This document shows positions 49,229 to 58,824 of a stretch of 64,000 nt of DNA, piece after piece. The DNA comes from Kiloniellales bacterium (GTDB lineage Bacteria; Pseudomonadota; Alphaproteobacteria; Kiloniellales; JAKSDN01), in NCBI GenBank assembly GCA_041617155.1, contig JBFJPL010000003.1:19189-83188 (forward strand), given 5' to 3'. Every line of letters begins with the position of its first letter. Position 1 is the first letter of the stretch. A program made the translations under genes and the position numbers. Under the pieces are notes generated by a model. It saw nothing but the letters and a program-made list of their open reading frames with translations, made no database searches and was not told the origin of the DNA.

Positions 49229-52200
49229 CTATTCCGCCGCCTTCGGCACCTGCTCGAGGTCGACCGCGGCGGGCGGCCCCGCGGCCGGCCGCGGCCGCCG
49301 CTTCTTGCGCCACCAATCAGCCAGGTTGGCGCGCAGCATGAGTGCCGACGGCGTCACCACCAGTGTCAGCACGGTCGCGAAGGTCAGGCCGAACACGATC
49401 GCGGTCGACAGCTGGCGCCACCACTGGGTCGAGGGCGCGCCCAGCTGCACGGTCCGGGTCAGGAAGTCGATGTTCATGGCCAGCACCATGGGCATCAGCC
49501 CGAGGATCGTCGTCACCGTGGTCAACAGCACCGGGCGCAGGCGCTGGGCGCCGGTGCGCAGAATCGCCTCGCGCACGTTCGGCGTGGTTTGCTTCAGGCG
49601 GTCGAAGGTATCGATCAGCACGATGTTGTTGTTGACCACGATGCCGGCCAGCGCGATGACGCCGATGCCCGACATGACGATACCGAAGGGCTGGCCGGTG
49701 ACCAGCAGTCCGATCATGACGCCGATGGTCGACATAATGACCGCCGAGAGGATCAGGAAGGCGCTGTAGAAGCTGTTGAACTGGGTCACCAGAATGATCG
49801 CCATGAGGAACAGGGCGACGATGAAGGCCTTGATCAGGAAAGCCTGCGCCTCCTGCTGTTCCTCGTCCTCGCCTTTGAAAGTGACGGTGACCCGAGGATC
49901 GAGCGCGGCGGTGGCCAGCCAGCGACGGATCTCGCCGACCTTGTCGTCGACCAGGAGACCGGGTGCGACATCGGCCTTCACGGTCATGACGCGGCTGCCG
50001 TCGATGCGGTTCAGCAGCCCGACCTTGGGCCGCGCCTTGCGCTCGACGAAGTTCGCGATCGGGATCAGCCCGGCGCCGGTCTGGACCCGTATCTCGTCCA
50101 GGTGGTCGATGCTGCGGTTCGCCTCGGGCAGGCGCACCACGATGTCGATCTCCTCGTCGCTATCGTCCGGCCGGTACTCGCCCAGCTTCATGCCGTTGGT
50201 GATCATGCGCACGTAGCTGCCGATCAGCGACACGTCGGCGCCGAACTTGGCCGCCTGGGAACGGTCGACGCTGAGCTCCCACTCGATGCCGGGGATCGGC
50301 CGGCTGTCCTCCAGGTCGACGAAACCGCCGATCCGCTTCATGGCCTCGACCACCTGTGCCACGGTCGGTTCGATCGCCGCCGGGTCGGCGGAGGCGATCT
50401 GGACCTGGACCGGCTTGCCGACCGGCGGGCCGGCTTCCTCCTTGCGCGGCTCGACGGCGATGCCGGCCAGATCGGCGGTGCGGGCGCGCACCTCGGCCAG
50501 GATCTCGTTGGCCGGCCGGCGCAGGTGCCAGTCCGTGAACTCGATTTGTATGGTGCCGATCAGGTCCTGCGGCTCGTTGTCGCGTTGGGTGCCCGACGAG
50601 GCGACGCTGCGCGCGTAGATCGCGTGGAATTCGGCCTTTTCGCGCTGCATCTGGAGGATCCGGTCCTCGACCTGACGCAGCAGGTGGTCGCGCTCGTCGA
50701 TCGACAGGTTGCCGCGCCCGTGAACCTGAAGGGCGGCGTTGTCGGGCTCCACGTCGGGGAAGAACTCGACCCCCCGGCCGAAGGTGGCATAGGCGAACTG
50801 TACGCCGACCAGCACCACCAGGGCCGCCAGCAGCACCTTGGCCGGGTGTTTCAAGGCCGCCTGGAGCAGTCTTATGTAGCGTCCGGTAAAGCCCGGCACC
50901 CTGGTGAGGTCGCCGGACTCCCCGGCGGCCAGCACCTTGGCGGTCTCGCCTTTGGCGGCACCGCCCGCCCGGCCGAAGATCGAGCCCAATGTCGGCACGA
51001 AGACCAGCGCCATCAGCAGCGAGGCCGACAGCGTCGCGACCAGGGTAATCGGCAGGTATTTCATGAATTCGCCGACCGTGCCGGGCCAGAAGATCAGCGG
51101 CAGGAAGGCGGCCAGGGTGGTCGCGGTCGCCGCGGCGATCGGCCATGCCATGCGCTTGGCCGCCAGGGTGTAGGACTCCTTCTTGTCCAGGCCCTCGCTC
51201 ATCTTCCGGTCGGCGTATTCGGTCACCACGATGGCGCCGTCGACCAGCATGCCGACCGCGAGGATCAGGCTGAACAGCACCACGATGTTGACTGTGAAGC
51301 CGACCACCGCCAGCACCAGAATGCCGGTCAGAAAAGAGCCCGGGATGGCAATGCCGACCATGCTGGCTGAACGCAGGCCGAGCGCGGCGACCACCACGAT
51401 CATCACCAGCAGGATCGCGCTCAGCACGTTGTTCTGCAAGTCGCTCAACATGTTGCGGATGTCGGAAGACTTGTCCTGGCTGTAGGTCACGATCACATCG
51501 GCCGGCCAATTGCGGCGCTCGGCCTCGACCGCGGTGCGGACCTGCTCGATGGTCGCGATGATGTTCTCGCCGGTGCGCTTGGAAACCTCGAGCGCGATCG
51601 CCGGGCTGCCGTTGATGCGGGCGAAACCTTGGGAATCCTTGAAGGTGCGGCGCAGCACGCCGATGTCGCGAAAGCGCACGGCGGCGTCGCCGAAAACCTT
51701 CACCGGCATGTCGAGAATGTCGTCGGCGGTCTCGAACAGGCCCGGCACCTTGATGGCGAAACGGCCCTGGCCGGTGTCCAGCGAACCGGCCGCGACCAGC
51801 CGGTTGGAGCGGTTGACCGTATCTATGATGTCGCGGGCGTTCAAGTTGTAGCTTTCCAGGATCAAAGGATCGACCACCAGTTCGACCAGCTCCTCGCGGT
51901 CGCCGCCGATCTCGGCCTTGAGCACGCTGGAGATGCCTTCGATCCGGTCCTGCAGGTCGCGGGCCAGGCGCAGAAGCGTGCGCTCCGGCACGTCGCCCGA
52001 TAGGGTCACCACCAGCACCGGGAAGAGGCTCAGGTTGATCTCGTGGACCGTCGGCTCGTCGCTGTCCTCCGGCAGTTCCGGCTTGGCCAGGTCGACCTTC
52101 TCGCGAACATCGGCCATGGCGATGTCGACGTCGAACCCGGCGTCGAACTCGAGCACCACGTTGGCGCCGCCGAGGAAGGCGGTCGAGCGCATCTCCTTGG

Positions 52201-52432
52201 CGCCCTCGATGTCGCGCAGCTGTTTTTCCAGCGGCTTGATCAAGAGACGCTCGGCGTCTTCCGGCGAAATGCCCTCGTGGTTGGCGTTGACGTAGAGTAT
52301 CGGAATGTTGATGTCCGGTTCGGCCTCCTTGGGCACGGCGACATAGGCATAGGTGCCGGCGATCAGCACCAGCACCAGCGTGGCCAGGACCGTACGCGAA
52401 TGGCCGATGGCGGCTTCGATCAGGCTGTTCAA
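49229..52432 (-). CDS. RND efflux transporter permease (AcrB/HAE family)
   Basis: 1067 aa with the 12-TM RND pattern (MNSLIEAAIGHSRTVLATLVLVLIAG...; two large loops). It overlaps the MFP gene by 4 nt. Confidence 0.92.
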   Translation of the reverse strand: MNSLIEAAIGHSRTVLATLVLVLIAGTYAYVAVPKEAEPDINIPILYVNANHEGISPEDAERLLIKPLEKQLRDIEGAKEMRSTAFLGGANVVLEFDAGFDVDIAMADVREKVDLAKPELPEDSDEPTVHEINLSLFPVLVVTLSGDVPERTLLRLARDLQDRIEGISSVLKAEIGGDREELVELVVDPLILESYNLNARDIIDTVNRSNRLVAAGSLDTGQGRFAIKVPGLFETADDILDMPVKVFGDAAVRFRDIGVLRRTFKDSQGFARINGSPAIALEVSKRTGENIIATIEQVRTAVEAERRNWPADVIVTYSQDKSSDIRNMLSDLQNNVLSAILLVMIVVVAALGLRSASMVGIAIPGSFLTGILVLAVVGFTVNIVVLFSLILAVGMLVDGAIVVTEYADRKMSEGLDKKESYTLAAKRMAWPIAAATATTLAAFLPLIFWPGTVGEFMKYLPITLVATLSASLLMALVFVPTLGSIFGRAGGAAKGETAKVLAAGESGDLTRVPGFTGRYIRLLQAALKHPAKVLLAALVVLVGVQFAYATFGRGVEFFPDVEPDNAALQVHGRGNLSIDERDHLLRQVEDRILQMQREKAEFHAIYARSVASSGTQRDNEPQDLIGTIQIEFTDWHLRRPANEILAEVRARTADLAGIAVEPRKEEAGPPVGKPVQVQIASADPAAIEPTVAQVVEAMKRIGGFVDLEDSRPIPGIEWELSVDRSQAAKFGADVSLIGSYVRMITNGMKLGEYRPDDSDEEIDIVVRLPEANRSIDHLDEIRVQTGAGLIPIANFVERKARPKVGLLNRIDGSRVMTVKADVAPGLLVDDKVGEIRRWLATAALDPRVTVTFKGEDEEQQEAQAFLIKAFIVALFLMAIILVTQFNSFYSAFLILSAVIMSTIGVMIGLLVTGQPFGIVMSGIGVIALAGIVVNNNIVLIDTFDRLKQTTPNVREAILRTGAQRLRPVLLTTVTTILGLMPMVLAMNIDFLTRTVQLGAPSTQWWRQLSTAIVFGLTFATVLTLVVTPSALMLRANLADWWRKKRRPRPAAGPPAAVDLEQVPKAAE

Positions 52433-53535
52433 GACTCACCGCCCGCGACCGCCGGCCTTTCCAGGCTGCCTTCCTCGACCGGCCGCACCGTCTGGCCGAC
52501 CGTGACGAACTCCTGGCCCACGGTGATGAAGGTGACCCGCTCCGGCGGCCCGCCGATCCACATGCCCTTGGCGCCGCTCTCGAGGATCTTGACCGGGAGG
52601 AAGCCGACCGTGTTGTCCGCCTCCAGGGTCTTGACACCGATTTCGCCGCTGTCGGTCAATGTCAGGATGGCCGGTGATACCAGGTGCGCGAGCGCGCTTT
52701 CCAGGGGAATGCGCAGCTCAGCCGTGACGCCGTCGGGAATCGCGCCCTTCGGGTTGGCGACTTCCAGCTCGACCCGGAAGGTGCGGGTCGCCGGGTCGGC
52801 CATGGCGCCGATGAAGCGCAGCCTGCCGCGCACCTCGACACCGGTGATCAGGCGCGCCCGGGCATCGGCGCCGATCGTCAAGCGGCCGACGTCGCGCTCG
52901 CTCACCTGGGCGACCACCAGGATCGGATCGAGATCGATCACCCGGGCGATCGGATTGCCGGTTTCGACGAAATCGCCGATCTCGATCATGCGTTCGTCGA
53001 CCAGGCCGTCGAACGGCGCCCGGATGCTGAGGTTTTCCAGCTCCACTTCGGCGCGGCTGACCGCGGCTTCCGCGGCATTCAGGGCGGCCTTGGCGGCGGC
53101 CAGCTGGGTTTCGGCGCGGAAGCCTTTTTTCGACAGGCGCCTGGCGGCGTCGTACTCGATGCGCCGCTGCTCGAGCAGCGAGCGCGCCTCCTTGAGCTGT
53201 GCCGGTCGGTCTTCCGGGGCCAGGCCGGCGATGACCTGGTTGCCCTCGACCCGGTCACCGCGTGCGATCGGCAGCGTTACCACCCGGCCATAAGTCTCGG
53301 CCTTGACCTGAACGGTGCGCACCGCTTCGGTCCGGCCGCGCAGAATGATCTTCGCCTGGCGCATCTCGGCCACTTGGCTGCGCACCCGTACCAGCGGCAC
53401 CTTACTGGCGCCGGCCAGATCGGCCGGCGGTTTGCGCGCTTCCGGCTCGTTGCCGCCCTCGGCGATCAGGCCCGAAGCGATCCACCCGGCGGCGGCTACC
53501 GCCAGCACGGCGGCTATGACATACGAGCGGTTCAT
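52429..53535 (-). CDS. RND efflux periplasmic adaptor (membrane fusion protein)
   Basis: 368 aa with an N-terminal anchor, a coiled-coil hairpin (LKEARSLLEQRRIEYDAARRL...AAKAALNAAEAAVSRAEVELENLSIRAPFDG) and a beta-barrel region. Confidence 0.9.
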   Translation of the reverse strand: MNRSYVIAAVLAVAAAGWIASGLIAEGGNEPEARKPPADLAGASKVPLVRVRSQVAEMRQAKIILRGRTEAVRTVQVKAETYGRVVTLPIARGDRVEGNQVIAGLAPEDRPAQLKEARSLLEQRRIEYDAARRLSKKGFRAETQLAAAKAALNAAEAAVSRAEVELENLSIRAPFDGLVDERMIEIGDFVETGNPIARVIDLDPILVVAQVSERDVGRLTIGADARARLITGVEVRGRLRFIGAMADPATRTFRVELEVANPKGAIPDGVTAELRIPLESALAHLVSPAILTLTDSGEIGVKTLEADNTVGFLPVKILESGAKGMWIGGPPERVTFITVGQEFVTVGQTVRPVEEGSLERPAVAGGES

Positions 53536-53612
53536 TGCGGCGGTCGGCTCCTCGTGGACCTCTGTTCAATTGTACGCGCTATCGGGCGGTTCGGTTCCCG
53601 CGACCGGCGGGT

Positions 53613-54170
53613 TTATTCGGCCACCAGGGCCGGTGGCGGGTCGGCCAGGGGATGGGCGGCGTCGGCCGCCACCAGGTCGCGGTTCTGCCGCAGATAGTCG
53701 GCGGCGGCGCGATAGAGCGCCAGGCCGAAGCCGTGGACCAGTTGCTGACCGGCCGAGCGGTCGTCCGGGGCGCAGGCCTCCATGCGGGCGATCTGCGCCT
53801 CGTAGTAGGCGATCCGCTGGTCGATCACGGCCGCCACGTGGCTTGCCGGCAGCATGTGGCTCAGGAACAGCACGAACAGAAAATCCGAGCGGAACTTGTC
53901 GGGCGGCGGCGGTTCCATCAGGGCGGCGGTCAAGGCCTGCCAACCGGACTCGGTGATCGCGTAGACCTTTTTGTCCGGCCGCTTTTGCTGGGCCATCTCG
54001 GTGCCGTGGACCAGCCCTTCCTCGGTCAGCTTGGTGAGCGCCGGATAGATCGACCCGAAGCCGGTGTCCTGGAACTGGCCGAGCGGCGGCTCTTCCAGGG
54101 CTTTCTTAATCTCGTAGCCACTGGCGTCGCCTCGGCTCAGCACCGCCAGGCAAAGTGATTTGGCATCCAT
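53613..54170 (-). CDS. PadR-family transcriptional regulator
   Basis: 185 aa. LAVLSRGDASGYEIKKALEE...GSIYPALTKLTEEGLV...KKVYAITESG is the PadR wHTH. It lies upstream of the MFP-RND genes on the same strand. Confidence 0.88.
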   Translation of the reverse strand: MDAKSLCLAVLSRGDASGYEIKKALEEPPLGQFQDTGFGSIYPALTKLTEEGLVHGTEMAQQKRPDKKVYAITESGWQALTAALMEPPPPDKFRSDFLFVLFLSHMLPASHVAAVIDQRIAYYEAQIARMEACAPDDRSAGQQLVHGFGLALYRAAADYLRQNRDLVAADAAHPLADPPPALVAE

Positions 54171-54372
54171 GGTGCGCCTCTTCCCCCGATAATGGCCTTA
54201 TATATCGGAACGAAATAACACGGTCCAATATATTTTTTTTCGGTATATCAATATGCGCGTAAAAATCCTGGAGACCTCGCGGCAATACCCTAAAAATTAC
54301 ATAAAAATCATACATTTGCCGATCTAGCTTCTACATAGTAGTATTAAAAGACGATATATTTCGGGGACCGCC

Positions 54373-54771
54373 ATGAATTTGCTGTCCAACGCGACCCTCT
54401 CCAGCCTGGCGGCGCAAAGCCATAGCCTGGCTGTTTCGGCGAGCAATATCGCGAACGTGCGCAGCCTGGGTCTGCCGCTAGACGGTAGTCAGCCGAGCGG
54501 GGGAGAGTACGTGCCCCAGCGTGCGGTGCAGACCTCCGGGCCGGACGGTATCGTACGCAGCCAGGCGGTACCGATCGAACCACCCTCGGTTCCAGCTTTC
54601 GACCCGAATGACCCCCGGGCCGACGCGAACGGATTGGTGCCGATCGCCAACGTGTCGCTGGAACAGGAATTCGTCGTCCAGATCCAGGCCAAGCTCGCCT
54701 ACAAGGCCAATCTGGCGGCCTTGCAGACCCAAAACGAGATCCTGGGCGAGTTGCTCGACGTGGTGTCCTGA
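54373..54771 (+). CDS. Orphan FlgC-like flagellar rod-family protein
   Basis: 132 aa, colinear with FlgC of this window: SNIANVRS (vs ENVANADS), YVPQRAVQT (vs YRRKVVTF), FDPNDPRADANGLVPIANVSLEQEFVVQIQAKLAYKANL (vs [39 protein letters not shown]). It lies 22 kb away from the flagellar island. Confidence 0.7.
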   Translation: MNLLSNATLSSLAAQSHSLAVSASNIANVRSLGLPLDGSQPSGGEYVPQRAVQTSGPDGIVRSQAVPIEPPSVPAFDPNDPRADANGLVPIANVSLEQEFVVQIQAKLAYKANLAALQTQNEILGELLDVVS

Positions 54772-54854
54772 GCGCAGCCTGGACGCGGGCCTGCGTTGGC
54801 CGGCTCTTAGTTTAACCTTGTCCCCGCGTCACCGGCGCGCTACATATGTCCCTG

Positions 54855-54971
54855 ATGAGCACGACGCGCAAAGAGATGATCCAGCATCAAAGTGCCCTGC
54901 CGGACGCTGGGGTTGTTCGTGCGCCGCTGCTCCCCCTCCTTCCCGAGATCCTCCTTCTTAGCTGCCCCTGA
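54855..54971 (+). promoter_or_regulatory. Candidate Leu-rich leader peptide ORF upstream of leuA
   Basis: A 38-codon ORF encodes MSTTRKEMIQHQSALPDAGVVRAPLLPLLPEILLLSCP*, with an in-frame alternative ATG at 54846. Seven Leu occur in the last 14 codons, including three CTT. It ends 90 nt before the leuA ATG. No convincing SD is present. Confidence 0.35.
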
Positions 54972-55060
54972 GCGCTACAGCCGCGTTGTGGCGGCAAGCG
55001 AGCAGGGGGACATGACCGGCCCAACGCTAAGTAACTGAGGGAACGAGGAAATTTTCAGTC

Positions 55061-56617
55061 ATGAGTAGTACCAAGAAGGGCGCCGAGCGCGTCATCGTCT
55101 TCGACACCACCCTGCGCGACGGCGAACAGTCGCCGGGTTGCTCGATGAACCTGGAGGAGAAGGTCCAGGTCGCCGACATGCTCGAGCGCATGGGCGTGGA
55201 TGTCATCGAAGCCGGCTTCCCGATCGCCTCGCGCGGCGACTTCGAGGCGGTCAGCAAGATCGCCAGCCGGGTCAAGGACAGCGCCGTGGCCGGATTGGCC
55301 AGGGCCAGCGCAAAGGACATCGACCGGGCCGGAGAGGCGCTCAAGCATGCCGAGCGGCCGCGCATCCACACTTTCATCTCCACCAGCCCGCTGCATATGA
55401 AGCACAAGCTGCAGATGGAGCCCGAGGCGGTGCACCAGGCGGTGATCGACAGCGTCACCCGGGCCCGCAACCTGTGCGACGACGTGGAGTGGTCGCCCGA
55501 GGACGGCACCCGCACCGAGCACGACTTCCTCTGCCGTTGCGTCGAGTCGGCGATCAAGGCGGGCGCGCGCACGGTCAACATCCCGGACACCGTGGGCTAC
55601 ACCGTGCCCGAGGAGTTCCACGACCTGATCGCCATGCTGAAGAACCGGGTGCCCAACATCGACCAGGCGGTGATCTCGGTCCACTGCCACAACGATCTGG
55701 GCTTGGCGGTCGCCAACTCCCTGGCCGCGATCCAGGCCGGCGCCCGGCAGGTCGAATGCACGATCAACGGCATCGGCGAACGGGCCGGCAACGCCTCGAT
55801 GGAGGAGATCGTCATGGCGCTGCGCACGCGCCGCGACTTCATGCCTTTCGAGACCGGCGTCGACACCACGATGATCACCAAGGCCTCGCGCCTGCTTTCG
55901 GCGGTCACCGGCTTTTCGGTCCAGCCGAACAAGGCCATCGTCGGCGCCAACGCCTTCGCCCACGAGGCCGGCATCCATCAGGACGGCATGCTGAAGAACG
56001 CCGAGACCTACGAGATCATGACGCCGGAGTCGGTCGGCCTGACCCGCTCGACCCTGGTCATGGGCAAGCATTCGGGGCGCCACGCCTTCAAGACCAAGCT
56101 CGAGGAGCTGGGCTTCAAGCTGAGCGACAACGAGCTGAACGACGCCTTCGAGCGCTTCAAGGACTTGGCGGACAACAAGAAAGACGTGTTCGACGAAGAC
56201 CTGATCGCCCTGGTCGACGATGCCGTGGTGCGCCACAACGACCGCATCAAGTTCGTTTCCCTGCAGGTGGTATGCGGCTCGAAGGGGCCGCAGACGGCCG
56301 AGCTAGAGCTCGAGTTCGACGGCAAGGTCAAGTGCGAGAAGGCCAACGGCAACGGTCCGGTCGACGCGCTGTTCGCGGCGATCAGCAAGATCTGTCCGCA
56401 CGAGGGCAAACTGCAGCTCTATCAGGTCCATGCCGTGACCGGCGGGACCGACGCCCAGGCCGAAGTGACGGTACGACTTGAAGAGAACGGCAAAACCGTC
56501 AACGGCCAGGGCGCCGACTATGATACCCTGGTGGCGTCCGCCCGGGCCTATGTGAATGCTTTGAACAAACTACTGGTGAAACGAGAAAAGACCGCGCCGG
56601 CGGCGCTTTCGGCCTGA
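55061..56617 (+). CDS. leuA: 2-isopropylmalate synthase
   Basis: 518 aa. It carries VIVFDTTLRDGEQSPGCSMNLEEKVQVADMLERMGVDVIEAGFPIAS...HCHNDLGLAVANSLAA. Confidence 0.96.
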   Translation: MSSTKKGAERVIVFDTTLRDGEQSPGCSMNLEEKVQVADMLERMGVDVIEAGFPIASRGDFEAVSKIASRVKDSAVAGLARASAKDIDRAGEALKHAERPRIHTFISTSPLHMKHKLQMEPEAVHQAVIDSVTRARNLCDDVEWSPEDGTRTEHDFLCRCVESAIKAGARTVNIPDTVGYTVPEEFHDLIAMLKNRVPNIDQAVISVHCHNDLGLAVANSLAAIQAGARQVECTINGIGERAGNASMEEIVMALRTRRDFMPFETGVDTTMITKASRLLSAVTGFSVQPNKAIVGANAFAHEAGIHQDGMLKNAETYEIMTPESVGLTRSTLVMGKHSGRHAFKTKLEELGFKLSDNELNDAFERFKDLADNKKDVFDEDLIALVDDAVVRHNDRIKFVSLQVVCGSKGPQTAELELEFDGKVKCEKANGNGPVDALFAAISKICPHEGKLQLYQVHAVTGGTDAQAEVTVRLEENGKTVNGQGADYDTLVASARAYVNALNKLLVKREKTAPAALSA

Positions 56618-56728: not shown

Positions 56729-57781
<1,053 letters not shown>

Positions 57782-57942
57782 TGGTCTGATTCAGATCACT
57801 AGGGTCTCGGCGCTGCCCGCAACCGGTTTCCCAAATTCTCAACGCTTTATTAAGATAAAGCTGTATACCTTAAAGTGTAGCGACAGTAGCATAGACCGAA
57901 TCGCAAACGTGATGGTGGCTGATACCCAGGAACGGAGGGGGC

Positions 57943-58824
57943 GTGTATAGACGCGCGGGTTCAGTTGTTCGCTTGGCCACGCCCGTCAAGGCGTGGGCGC
58001 AAAGGTTTGCCCTCCTTCTGCTGATCGGCGTCGCCATTGCCCTGATGTTGCTGGACAAGGCCGACAGCGTGGTGATCGAACGGGCCCGCACCGTTGTGAC
58101 CGACGCCGTCTCGCCCCTGCTCGAAGCGGCCGCCCGGCCCGTCACGACCTTCAACGAGATGACCGAGCGTGCCGCCCAGCTGGTTTCCGTGGCCGCCGAG
58201 AACGCCACCCTGCGCGAGCAGAACGAACGCCTGCAGCACTGGCAGACCGTCGCGCGCCGCCTGGAAGCGGAGAACACCGCGCTCAGGAACATGCTCAGCC
58301 TGGCGCCGGACCCGGCGCTTCGGTTCGTCACCGCGCGGGTGATCGGCGATCAGGGCGGCGCCTTCGTCCGCTCGATGCTGGTCAATGTCGGCCGCCGCCA
58401 AGGCGTCGCGCGTGGCCAGGCGGCGCTGACCGGCCAAGGCCTGGCCGGTCGGGTCGCGGAGGTCGGCGCGCATACGGCGCGGGTGCTCCTGTTGACCGAC
58501 ATGAACAGCCGGATACCGATCCTCGTGGGCGAGACGCGCGACCGCGCGATGCTGGCCGGCGACAACACGGGCCAACCACGGCTGCTCTACCTGGAGCCGC
58601 GGGTCGAGCTGAAGGTCGGCGACCGCGTGGTGACCTCGGGCCACGGGGGCGTGTTTCCGCCGGGCCTGCCGGTTGGCCAGGTGGTCTCGGCCGGCAAGGA
58701 AGGCGTCCGGGTGCAGCCCTTTGTCGACTGGGGGCACATGGAATATCTTCGGCTGGTGGACTATGAACTGCCCGGCATCCTGCGCTCCCTCGAGGATAGC
58801 AAGACGCCGGGGAATGGTCGGTGA
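57943..58824 (+). CDS. mreC: Rod shape-determining protein MreC
   Basis: 293 aa, GTG start after GGAGGGGG. It has a coiled coil (LREQNERLQHWQTVARRLEAENTALR) and C-terminal GDRVVTSGHGGVFPPGLPVGQV. Confidence 0.9.
   Translation: MYRRAGSVVRLATPVKAWAQRFALLLLIGVAIALMLLDKADSVVIERARTVVTDAVSPLLEAAARPVTTFNEMTERAAQLVSVAAENATLREQNERLQHWQTVARRLEAENTALRNMLSLAPDPALRFVTARVIGDQGGAFVRSMLVNVGRRQGVARGQAALTGQGLAGRVAEVGAHTARVLLLTDMNSRIPILVGETRDRAMLAGDNTGQPRLLYLEPRVELKVGDRVVTSGHGGVFPPGLPVGQVVSAGKEGVRVQPFVDWGHMEYLRLVDYELPGILRSLEDSKTPGNGR

Follow-up and report, generated by a model that had tools for sequence, protein, structure and literature searches.

In the leu leader of enterobacteria, consecutive rare Leu codons sense charged tRNA-Leu and control the leucine biosynthesis genes, and textbook leader-peptide attenuation of this kind requires a transcription terminator. 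Here we describe the region upstream of leuA, the gene for 2-isopropylmalate synthase, in 64,000 nucleotides of a Kiloniellales bacterium (assembly GCA_041617155.1, contig JBFJPL010000003.1, positions 19,189 to 83,188 of the forward strand; this whole stretch is called the window, and positions are counted from its first letter), where a short open reading frame (ORF) ending in a run of Leu codons precedes leuA. Like enterobacterial leuL (RF00512, Leu_leader) the element has a short leader ORF with a Leu-codon run, but leuL carries antiterminator and terminator hairpins with a U-tract and precedes leuABCD, whereas here there is no terminator and no match to the model, and the presumed target is leuA alone. 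With neither a terminator nor a model match, the element falls outside the enterobacterial Leu_leader family.

Terminator-less or translational control by leader ribosomes is known from other systems. In ermC and cat-type systems a stalled leader ribosome remodels the mRNA so that the downstream Shine-Dalgarno sequence (SD) becomes accessible. The mechanism proposed here is similar in that a stall in the leader ORF would free the SD of the downstream gene; it differs in that the ermC and cat stalls depend on a drug and on the nascent peptide and release the SD indirectly (pairing 1:2 and 3:4 giving way to 2:3), whereas here an uncharged-tRNA stall would cover the anti-SD directly. The Rho-dependent E. 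coli tnaC-tnaA leader, whose peptide ends Arg-Pro-UGA, also lacks a terminator, and its signal is ribosome occupancy of the leader 3′ end, as would be the case here. However, tnaC responds to free tryptophan through the nascent peptide and blocks a Rho utilisation (rut) site next to its stop codon, whereas in the element described here there are Leu codons and the stop codon lies within a hairpin.

The closest published description that we found is that of the actinobacterial LEU element, which lies upstream of leuA, lacks a terminator and combines a leader ORF containing a Leu run with a base stem, formed by that run and the SD, around a conserved structure; a pseudoknot or alternative hairpin was described for it, and its authors favoured a role in protein binding (PMC1262725). 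Position 5′ of leuA, the Leu-run leader ORF, the base stem between Leu run and SD (weak in some of the lineages studied here) and the lack of a terminator are common to both elements. They differ in that the LEU element belongs to Actinobacteria and has the pseudoknot or alternative hairpin where a single stop-codon hairpin is present here, a comparison drawn from the published description and without a pseudoknot search. Within the Alphaproteobacteria, the trpL leader of Sinorhizobium meliloti is a terminator-based attenuator that releases a small RNA (PMC6614838, PMC10117765) and is translated from a leaderless transcript (PMC10117765). It resembles the leuA element as an alphaproteobacterial leader peptide for an amino-acid biosynthesis gene, and in being leaderless, as the window leader would be; it differs in having a terminator, of which the leuA element has none. 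Our literature search found no description of an alphaproteobacterial leuA leader, although an earlier prediction in Vitreschak et al. (2004) or Lopatovskaya et al. (2010) is possible; a passage of Corbino et al. (2005) cites Vitreschak et al. (2004) solely for an ilvB leader in alpha-proteobacteria.

A conserved leader ORF and stop-codon hairpin upstream of leuA

The comparison set comprised 80 leuA loci from genomes, which with the window made 81 genome sources, and 80 metagenome loci (individual loci carry numbers with the prefix L). An upstream ORF ending (G)LLLL-x-[R/C/S]-P-stop was present in 54 of the 81 genome sources, the carriers including Bradyrhizobium, Afipia, Methylocystis, Rhodoblastus, Microvirga, Chelatococcus, Alsobacter, Phreatobacter and Pseudolabrys as well as Geminicoccaceae, Parvibaculaceae, Rhodobiaceae and the Tistlia/Kiloniellaceae lineage. 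The nucleotide consensus was CUY-CUY-CUU-ANN-NGC-CCC-UGA-G, followed by a variable inner hairpin and then C-UCA-GGGG-A. A covariance model (R1) made from 53 sequences matched 58 of the 81 genome sources, five of them outside the seed, and 48 of the 80 metagenome loci, all outside the seed. In total 106 of 161 leuA sources were matched, each locus once, on the + strand and directly 5′ of leuA, and the conserved core listed in Table 1 was the sole R1 match in the 64 kb window. At Pelagibacterales leuA loci the element was not found with R1.

The codons at the end of the leader, numbered back from the stop codon in 101 loci, were strongly constrained. The stop codon itself was at the same place throughout (TGA in 93 loci, TAG in four and TAA in two) and codon −1 was CCC in 97, the leader ending Pro-UGA in 97 of the 101 loci. 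The first base of codon −3 was nearly always A, and codon −4 was CTT in 99 loci. Further upstream, codon −5 was CTC in 51, CTT in 26, CGA in 15 and CTG in seven loci, and codon −6 was CTT in 61, CTG in 23 and CTC in 13. Thus Leu codons −5, −6 and −7 varied at the third position only, apart from one replacement at −5 by the rare Arg codon CGA. Of the Leu codons at positions −4 to −7, 57% were CTT; in the leuA genes next to the leaders the figure was 4.2%. In the Pseudolabrys group the leader changed in length by whole codons, so that the MSTR... start and the ...LLLLIRP end remained in frame.

Two features of this codon pattern stood out in individual loci. The tetranucleotide CUU-A (54957-54960 in the window) was near-invariant, occurring in 97 of 101 loci two codons before CCC-stop, with its A outside the hairpin described below. 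The 15 loci with CGA had the order CUU-CGA-CUU (peptide L-R-L) and were L004, L006, L008-L010, L034, L035, L040, L069, L083, L086, L087, L091, L136 and L156; in L004 and L006 the CG of the CGA codon pairs with the flank of the leuA ribosome-binding site (RBS; CGAAGGA).

No Rfam 15 family matched positions 54300-55400 at E ≤ 10, an Rfam scan of 15 related loci gave only tRNAs at the gathering score, and five leader peptides matched nothing in NCBIfam or Pfam. In Bradyrhizobium records the leader ORF has been called as a gene (for example BBta_6045 and WP_315756323.1) under the name 'hypothetical protein', with predicted starts that differ between genomes (33-56 amino acids). Judged from these comparisons, the element is a real, widely conserved and uncurated leuA leader. 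The case that it is more than a chance occurrence comes from the comparative data, the statistics of the window alone being only moderate.

In the window the leader is found where the preliminary description had placed it, as a 38-codon ORF (54855-54971) with an alternative ATG at 54846, from which the ORF encodes 41 amino acids, MSLMSTTRKEMIQHQSALPDAGVVRAPLLPLLPEILLLSCP. The peptide terminates PLLPLLPEILLLSCP, and recounting agreed with the earlier tally: Leu accounts for seven of the final 14 codons, and three of these are CTT (54939, 54954 and 54957). CTT had been assumed to be rare, and in 44 window ORFs with high GC content at third codon positions it made up 4.0% of Leu codons, compared with 22% for CTC and 63% for CTG. 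With this usage, the probability of at least three CTT among the eight Leu codons of the leader was 0.003, and that of its three CTC codons was 0.005.

A putative promoter (Table 1) was recognised from a motif shared with relatives: L081 has an identical CTTGTC-N17-CTACAT(AT) 5′ of its leader, and L001 has CTTGTT-N17-TATATC. An E. coli-type promoter and terminator scan of the window region gave no match and left CTTGTC-N17-CTACAT unflagged, and a generic promoter search over 54 loci gave inconsistent results, the promoter-like motif being common only to the three closest relatives. If the motif is used, the transcript would start at about 54852, some 3 nt 5′ of the AUG at 54855, which would therefore be nearly leaderless; the alternative ATG at 54846 would then lie outside the transcript and is probably upstream of its start.

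The stop codon of the leader lies within the 5′ arm of a strong hairpin, CCCCUGAG/CUCAGGGG, whose outer stem is followed by inner stems CGCU:AGCG and GCCGC:GCGGC. The core sequence had a fold energy of −31.4 kcal/mol in the window (54951-55012) and of −19.6 to −36.6 kcal/mol across the family. RNAalifold gave an 8-bp outer stem in which four C:G pairs were invariant or nearly so and four pairs varied, three of the latter with changes on both sides, along with U:A/U:G alternation. Changes of the stop codon were compensated in the 3′ arm (TGA:TCA, TAG:CTA, TAA:TTA and CCTCTGA:TCAGAGG). In an alignment derived from the covariance model and made up of 51 non-seed sequences (the window, 47 metagenome and three genome matches), 95.8% of cells were paired, compared with at most 64% in slid controls, and the observed covariation score was reached by none of 500 shuffles. 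The four C:G pairs at the hairpin base were identical in all 51 sequences, and the inner stem and loop varied in sequence and length. With the last CUU in the ribosomal A site, the first paired base lies about +12 from the first P-site nucleotide, as counted from the sequence. We suggest that the hairpin may serve as a clamp joining the two strands that flank it, and as a barrier against which the stalled ribosome would rest. A role as an anti-sequestor, in which the 3′ half of the hairpin would pair with the SD, was excluded, both strands being purine-rich.

Some lineages showed additional structure. In Afipia, Bradyrhizobium and Pseudolabrys (L038, L041, L054, L062 and the L043 group) a second GC-rich hairpin, GAGCGCCC...GGCGC, was present in the linker between the leader stop codon and leuA. 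In the same loci the inner part of the conserved hairpin could form long alternative pairings with sequence immediately 5′ of the SD (for example UCUGGGCGUAUGCGCC:GGCGCAUAUGACCAGA in L038). The second hairpin and the long pairings suggest a switch more elaborate than that of the window.

Predicted pairing between the leucine codons and the leuA ribosome-binding region

The preliminary description had proposed that an L-L-P segment of the leader, CCUCCUUCCC, is complementary at nine of ten positions to the leuA RBS, GGGAACGAGG. The complementarity and the position of the RBS half (55039-55048) stood up, whereas the leader half had to be moved from 54944-54953 to 54935-54944. The duplex of these two segments had an energy of −12.4 kcal/mol. 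That between the wider regions 54925-54962 and 55025-55060 reached −21.1 kcal/mol, placing it in the best 2.4% of equal-length windows along the 64 kb, the best 5% of leader shuffles and the best 2% of RBS shuffles. The minimum free energy (MFE) of the whole intergenic region was uninformative in comparison with shuffles (z = −0.5). When 54852-55090 was folded, the helix was part of the MFE structure with pair probabilities of 0.64-0.68, so that in the model GGGAA and GAGG of the SD region would be paired with this probability and the last two A of the core would be free. An auxiliary helix, CUUAGC:GCUAAG, extends the base stem under the hairpin (Table 1), and UUAGC:GCUAA pairing is also possible in L081.

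The effect of a ribosome on this structure was modelled in silico by footprints. In the fold of 54852-55090 the SD core GAGGAA had an unpaired probability of 0.37 in free RNA, and of 0.62, 0.56 and 0.93 when the A site was placed on L36, L37 and L38, respectively; footprints at these three codons cover most or all of 54935-54944. A second pairing claimed earlier, between UCCCCCU and AGGGGGA, involves motifs that do exist, although at 54931-54937 rather than 54939-54945 and at 55004-55010 rather than 55013-55019. AGGGGGA is the 3′ arm of the stop-codon hairpin, so this pairing is at most an alternative once the hairpin has been opened, and with a ribosome on the stop codon the freed AGGGGGA was indeed predicted to pair with UCCCCCU.

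Complementarity between the Leu run and the leuA SD, flanking sequence included on both sides, was seen at many loci, in lineage-specific helices. Helices of 10 bp were seen in L061 (GCUCCUUCUC:GAGAAGGAGC) and L103 (CAUCCUUCUC:GAGAAGGAUG) and of 9 bp in L117 (UCCUUCUUA:UAAGAAGGA) and L039 (UCCUUCUCG:CGAGAAGGA). Methylocystis L033 has CCUGCUG:CAGCAGG and the AT-rich L116 has UACUCCU:AGGAGUA. A compensatory pair was provided by L004 (GUCCUUCG:CGAAGGAC) and L006 (AUCCUUCG:CGAAGGAU).

Specificity was assessed by permuting the RBSs among cluster representatives, separately for the genome and metagenome sets. The longest perfect complement of the leader was greater with its own RBS than with permuted ones, both in genomes (5.68 vs 5.06 ± 0.14, p < 5e-5) and in metagenomes (5.97 vs 5.18 ± 0.16, p < 5e-5). 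Duplex energies gave the same picture (−12.8 vs −11.85 ± 0.38, p = 0.009 in genomes; −12.76 vs −11.08 ± 0.42, p = 5e-5 in metagenomes). In partition-function folds of 53 loci the total pairing of the SD was 0.56, of which 0.33 was with the Leu run and 0.09 with the upstream leader. Synonymous replacement of CUU and CUC by CUG in silico raised the accessibility of the SD in 34 loci and lowered it in four (p = 1.5e-7).

Proposed translational attenuation and its alternatives

With modest confidence we favour the view that 54817-55060 is the control region of leuA and works through a leucine-sensing leader peptide by translational attenuation, with the Leu codons serving as the anti-SD. It most likely acts mainly on the initiation of leuA translation and not on transcription termination. 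The short transcript leader would encode a 38-amino-acid peptide with rare CUU/CUC Leu codons at its 3′ end. In the free RNA, CCUCCUUCCC and CUUAGC would pair with GGGAACGAGG and GCUAAG, forming a base stem that encloses the stop-codon hairpin. When Leu-tRNA is ample, ribosomes would translate the leader to its end, terminate within the hairpin and be released, after which the base stem would re-form and initiation at leuA would be low. When the charged tRNA-Leu that reads CUY is scarce, a ribosome stalled on the Leu codons would cover the anti-SD, leaving the leuA SD free and leuA translated. The sequences themselves show that leader and hairpin are conserved, that terminators are lacking, that codon use is biased and that leader and RBS are specifically complementary; translation of the leader, stalling within it, the resulting effect on leuA and the part played by the hairpin are what we infer.

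If this is true, many Alphaproteobacteria control the first committed step of leucine synthesis by a terminator-less attenuation that acts at the RBS. The similar architecture predicted in Actinobacteria would suggest convergence or a very old design. The strict geometry (CUU-A, two codons and the Pro-stop within the hairpin) would offer a compact natural system in which a regulatory threshold is set jointly by rare codons, a helix 3′ of them and slow termination, and a curated model would improve annotation of an element absent from Rfam and NCBIfam.

Several observations weigh against this view. Any CU-rich run pairs somewhat with any SD, and specificity was therefore tested by the permutations described above. 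When the comparison was with RBSs of other long ORFs from the locus itself, the duplex energy showed no significant specificity (p = 0.97); this control set was noisy, since it included spurious GC-rich ORFs and some that overlap the leader, and was replaced by the cross-locus permutations. Predicted masking was partial, the family mean of the SD unpaired probability being 0.45 in free RNA and 0.53 with a ribosome on the Leu codons. A gain above 0.1 was seen in only 18-19 of 54 loci, and one or two lost. In a short-context fold of the window the value rose from 0.52 to only 0.60 with a ribosome on the Leu codons. Little complementarity between Leu run and SD was found in Bradyrhizobium L054 and L119, in Afipia L038 and L041, and in L036, L045 and L059. 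With the A site on the stop codon the SD core of the window was also unpaired (0.91), so that the SD would be freed there too and repression would hinge on fast release and refolding. In keeping with the preliminary description, the window leader has no SD of its own; many relatives have one. Finally, the model leaves unexplained the near-invariant CCCC/GGGG hairpin base, the CUU-A, the fixed spacing and a surplus of linkers with lengths divisible by three.

The proposal in the preliminary description, that stalling unmasks the leuA RBS, is in essence the view favoured here and is partly supported. It gains from the conserved leader, the lack of terminators, the match of leaders to their own RBS and the predicted opening of the helix with ribosomes on L36-L38; it had overlooked the stop-codon hairpin, and predicted masking is partial. 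It had also turned on conservation in relatives: the ORF and compensated changes in the hairpin extend across the Alphaproteobacteria, but L081 and L082, the relatives nearest to the window, have lost its exact helix, their RBS-proximal regions pairing elsewhere in the leader ORF.

A weaker but credible candidate is tna-like attenuation that depends on Rho. On this explanation the C-rich 3′ half of the leader would be a Rho loading site hidden by a stalled or slowly terminating ribosome, possibly acting together with RBS masking as polarity on untranslated leuA. A C-terminal Pro slows termination, and the leader ends Pro-UGA, like TnaC, in the 97 loci noted above; C exceeds G over 54880-55000 (GC skew −0.25), and an intrinsic terminator is lacking. 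For cys operons whose leaders have no terminator, Seliverstov et al. (2005) put forward a role of Rho (PMC1262725). However, the C-rich stretch is just ~40-70 nt long and lies inside the translated ORF, and beyond the stop codon come a very stable hairpin and then sequence in which G exceeds C (skew +0.08 to +0.27), which is poor for loading. Moreover, leaders of relatives are not C-rich outside the Leu run, and the lineage-specific complementarity between leader and RBS would be left unexplained.

A broader interpretation, which we put forward as speculative and rather improbable, is that the sense codons have three jobs at once, as sensor peptide, as slowly decoded rare codons (CUU or CGA) and as anti-Shine-Dalgarno, with the hairpin, which lies at the mRNA entrance of a ribosome whose A site holds the last CUU, acting as a barrier or timer, or as a recoding stimulator at CUU-A, in a riboregulator spanning alphaproteobacterial orders. 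The tendency of leuA to lie in the frame of the leader hints at ribosomes that occasionally continue past the stop codon.

It is unlikely that the stop-codon hairpin is instead the binding site of a protein or other factor that controls leuA, with the Leu codons secondary. The hairpin base is kept in sequence and not merely in pairing, with the four C:G pairs invariant in 51 sequences, and CUU-A and the spacing are invariant too; in addition, leader-codon mutations at Streptomyces leuA, as cited in PMC1262725, are reported to be at odds with classical attenuation. Nevertheless, the coding constraint (CCC and stop) and the stem constraint together may suffice for the conserved nucleotides, the inner stem and loop, where a ligand site would be expected, are variable, and no candidate factor was identified.

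Still more doubtful is recoding, in which a +1 shift at CUU-A or readthrough of UGA would allow the linker to be translated and coupled to the leuA start. The +1 frameshift sites of Ty1 (CUU-AGG) and prfB (CUU-UGA) begin with CUU, as does the CUU-A present in 97 of 101 loci, and a stable hairpin abuts the site. The distance from the stop codon to the leuA ATG was a multiple of three in 51 of 101 loci (chi-square p = 0.0009) and in 32 of 57 cluster representatives, the +1 frame ran into an ATGA that overlaps the leuA start in 22 loci compared with six for the +2 frame, and the +1 frame of the window stays open as far as 55038, just 5′ of the SD. Yet open linker frames were near chance (46 loci for frame 0 vs 36.4 ± 4.6 expected, and 41 vs 37.4 ± 4.7 for +1), the linkers of close relatives differ by 1-nt indels, and window leuA (linker 54972-55060) is out of the leader frame.

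Classical transcription attenuation by an intrinsic terminator, as in the enterobacterial leu leader, appears highly unlikely and is largely refuted by the sequence. As the preliminary description had noted, there is no hairpin with a U-tract in the window: a scan of 54300-55300 found no terminator-like site, nor was one present in 49 of 54 relatives, and no Rfam Leu_leader or other family matched at E ≤ 10. A hairpin with a T-tract occurred in five of 54 linkers, and three of the 54 were terminator-like, L036 and L048 having a U-rich tract after the conserved hairpin and L046 after a second hairpin; transcription termination may thus have been added in a few lineages (L036, L046 and L048). 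The conserved hairpin itself was excluded as a terminator, having no U-tract and the inverse of the required logic: it stays folded during a stall in the Leu run and melts when the ribosome reaches the stop codon, so that as a terminator it would silence leuA in starvation.

Chance occurrence of a functionless ORF and complementarity in a GC-rich intergenic region, to which the unremarkable nature of a 41-codon ORF at 66% GC and the weakness of window-only statistics might point, is a negligible prospect, already refuted by the R1 matches, in which the same ORF end, stop codon and hairpin recur at the same place and strand in 106 of 161 leuA sources, by the covariation and by the extreme codon bias.

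The leuA gene, its neighbours and other features

The coordinates of the features are collected in Table 1.

Table 1. Features of the leuA region in the window.
Feature	Position	Strand	Basis
132-amino-acid ORF with a flagellar basal-body rod C-terminal domain only (Flg_bbr_C, E 9e-6)	54373-54771	+	
Putative promoter: −35 CTTGTC (54817-54822), 17-nt spacer, −10 CTACAT (54840-54845)	54817-54845	+	Inferred from motif shared with relatives
Leader ORF, 38 codons and TGA; other in-frame ATGs at 54846 (41 codons) and 54876	54855-54971	+	Homologous ORFs in relatives
Candidate regulatory codons CTG CTC ccc CTC CTT ccc gag atc CTC CTT CTT; seven Leu, six of the rarer CTY type	54927-54959	+	
Candidate anti-SD segment CCUCCUUCCC, codons L31-L32-P33; 9/10 positions complementary to GGGAACGAGG (55039-55048)	54935-54944	+	Predicted helix
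Conserved core: last three Leu codons, A, two codons, CCC-TGA, hairpin	54951-55011	+	R1, 45.1 bits, E 3e-7
CUUAGC, 5′ half of auxiliary helix; extends base stem under hairpin	54957-54962	+	MFE structures
Stop-codon hairpin; outer stem CCCCUG (54965-54970):CAGGGG (55003-55008); TGA 54969-54971 in 5′ arm	54963-55010	+	Predicted fold, family covariation
GCUAAG, 3′ half of auxiliary helix	55026-55031	+	MFE structures
leuA ribosome-binding region GGGAACGAGGAA; SD core GAGGA 55045-55049, 11 nt 5′ of ATG	55039-55050	+	
leuA, 2-isopropylmalate synthase, 518 amino acids, presumed regulated gene	55061-56617	+	Pfam domain matches

The identification of the downstream gene as leuA, made in the preliminary description, was borne out by the Pfam domains of its product, HMGL-like (6e-95), HCS_D2 and LeuA_dimer (1e-41). 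The best genome-record matches, from Tistlia and Kiloniellaceae, were 82-84% identical to it, and the best metagenome match was 87% identical. Translation of leuA would begin at ATG 55061, a TAA at 55028 barring any earlier in-frame start, and the gene stands alone, outside any leuABCD operon. Downstream of it, on the + strand at 56744-58824, are mreB, assigned by Pfam, and then a 293-amino-acid ORF that is probably mreC.

On the other side, leuA is separated by a spacer of 289 nt (54772-55060) from the 132-amino-acid ORF with the Flg_bbr_C domain. This ORF has a PadR-type regulator and efflux genes to one side of it and leuA to the other, the listed ORFs on both sides being non-flagellar. The minus-strand genes at 49229-54170 comprise a PadR-family regulator, assigned by Pfam, and ORFs of 1067 and 368 amino acids; judged by eye, the former resembles an AcrB-type resistance-nodulation-division (RND) pump and the latter a membrane-fusion protein. 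Between the stop codon of the upstream ORF (54771) and the leader there is a long inverted repeat, GGACGCGGG with CCCCGCGUC (54781-54830), which has no U-tract and extends over the putative −35 box; it may serve as an operator, or may terminate or insulate the upstream gene.

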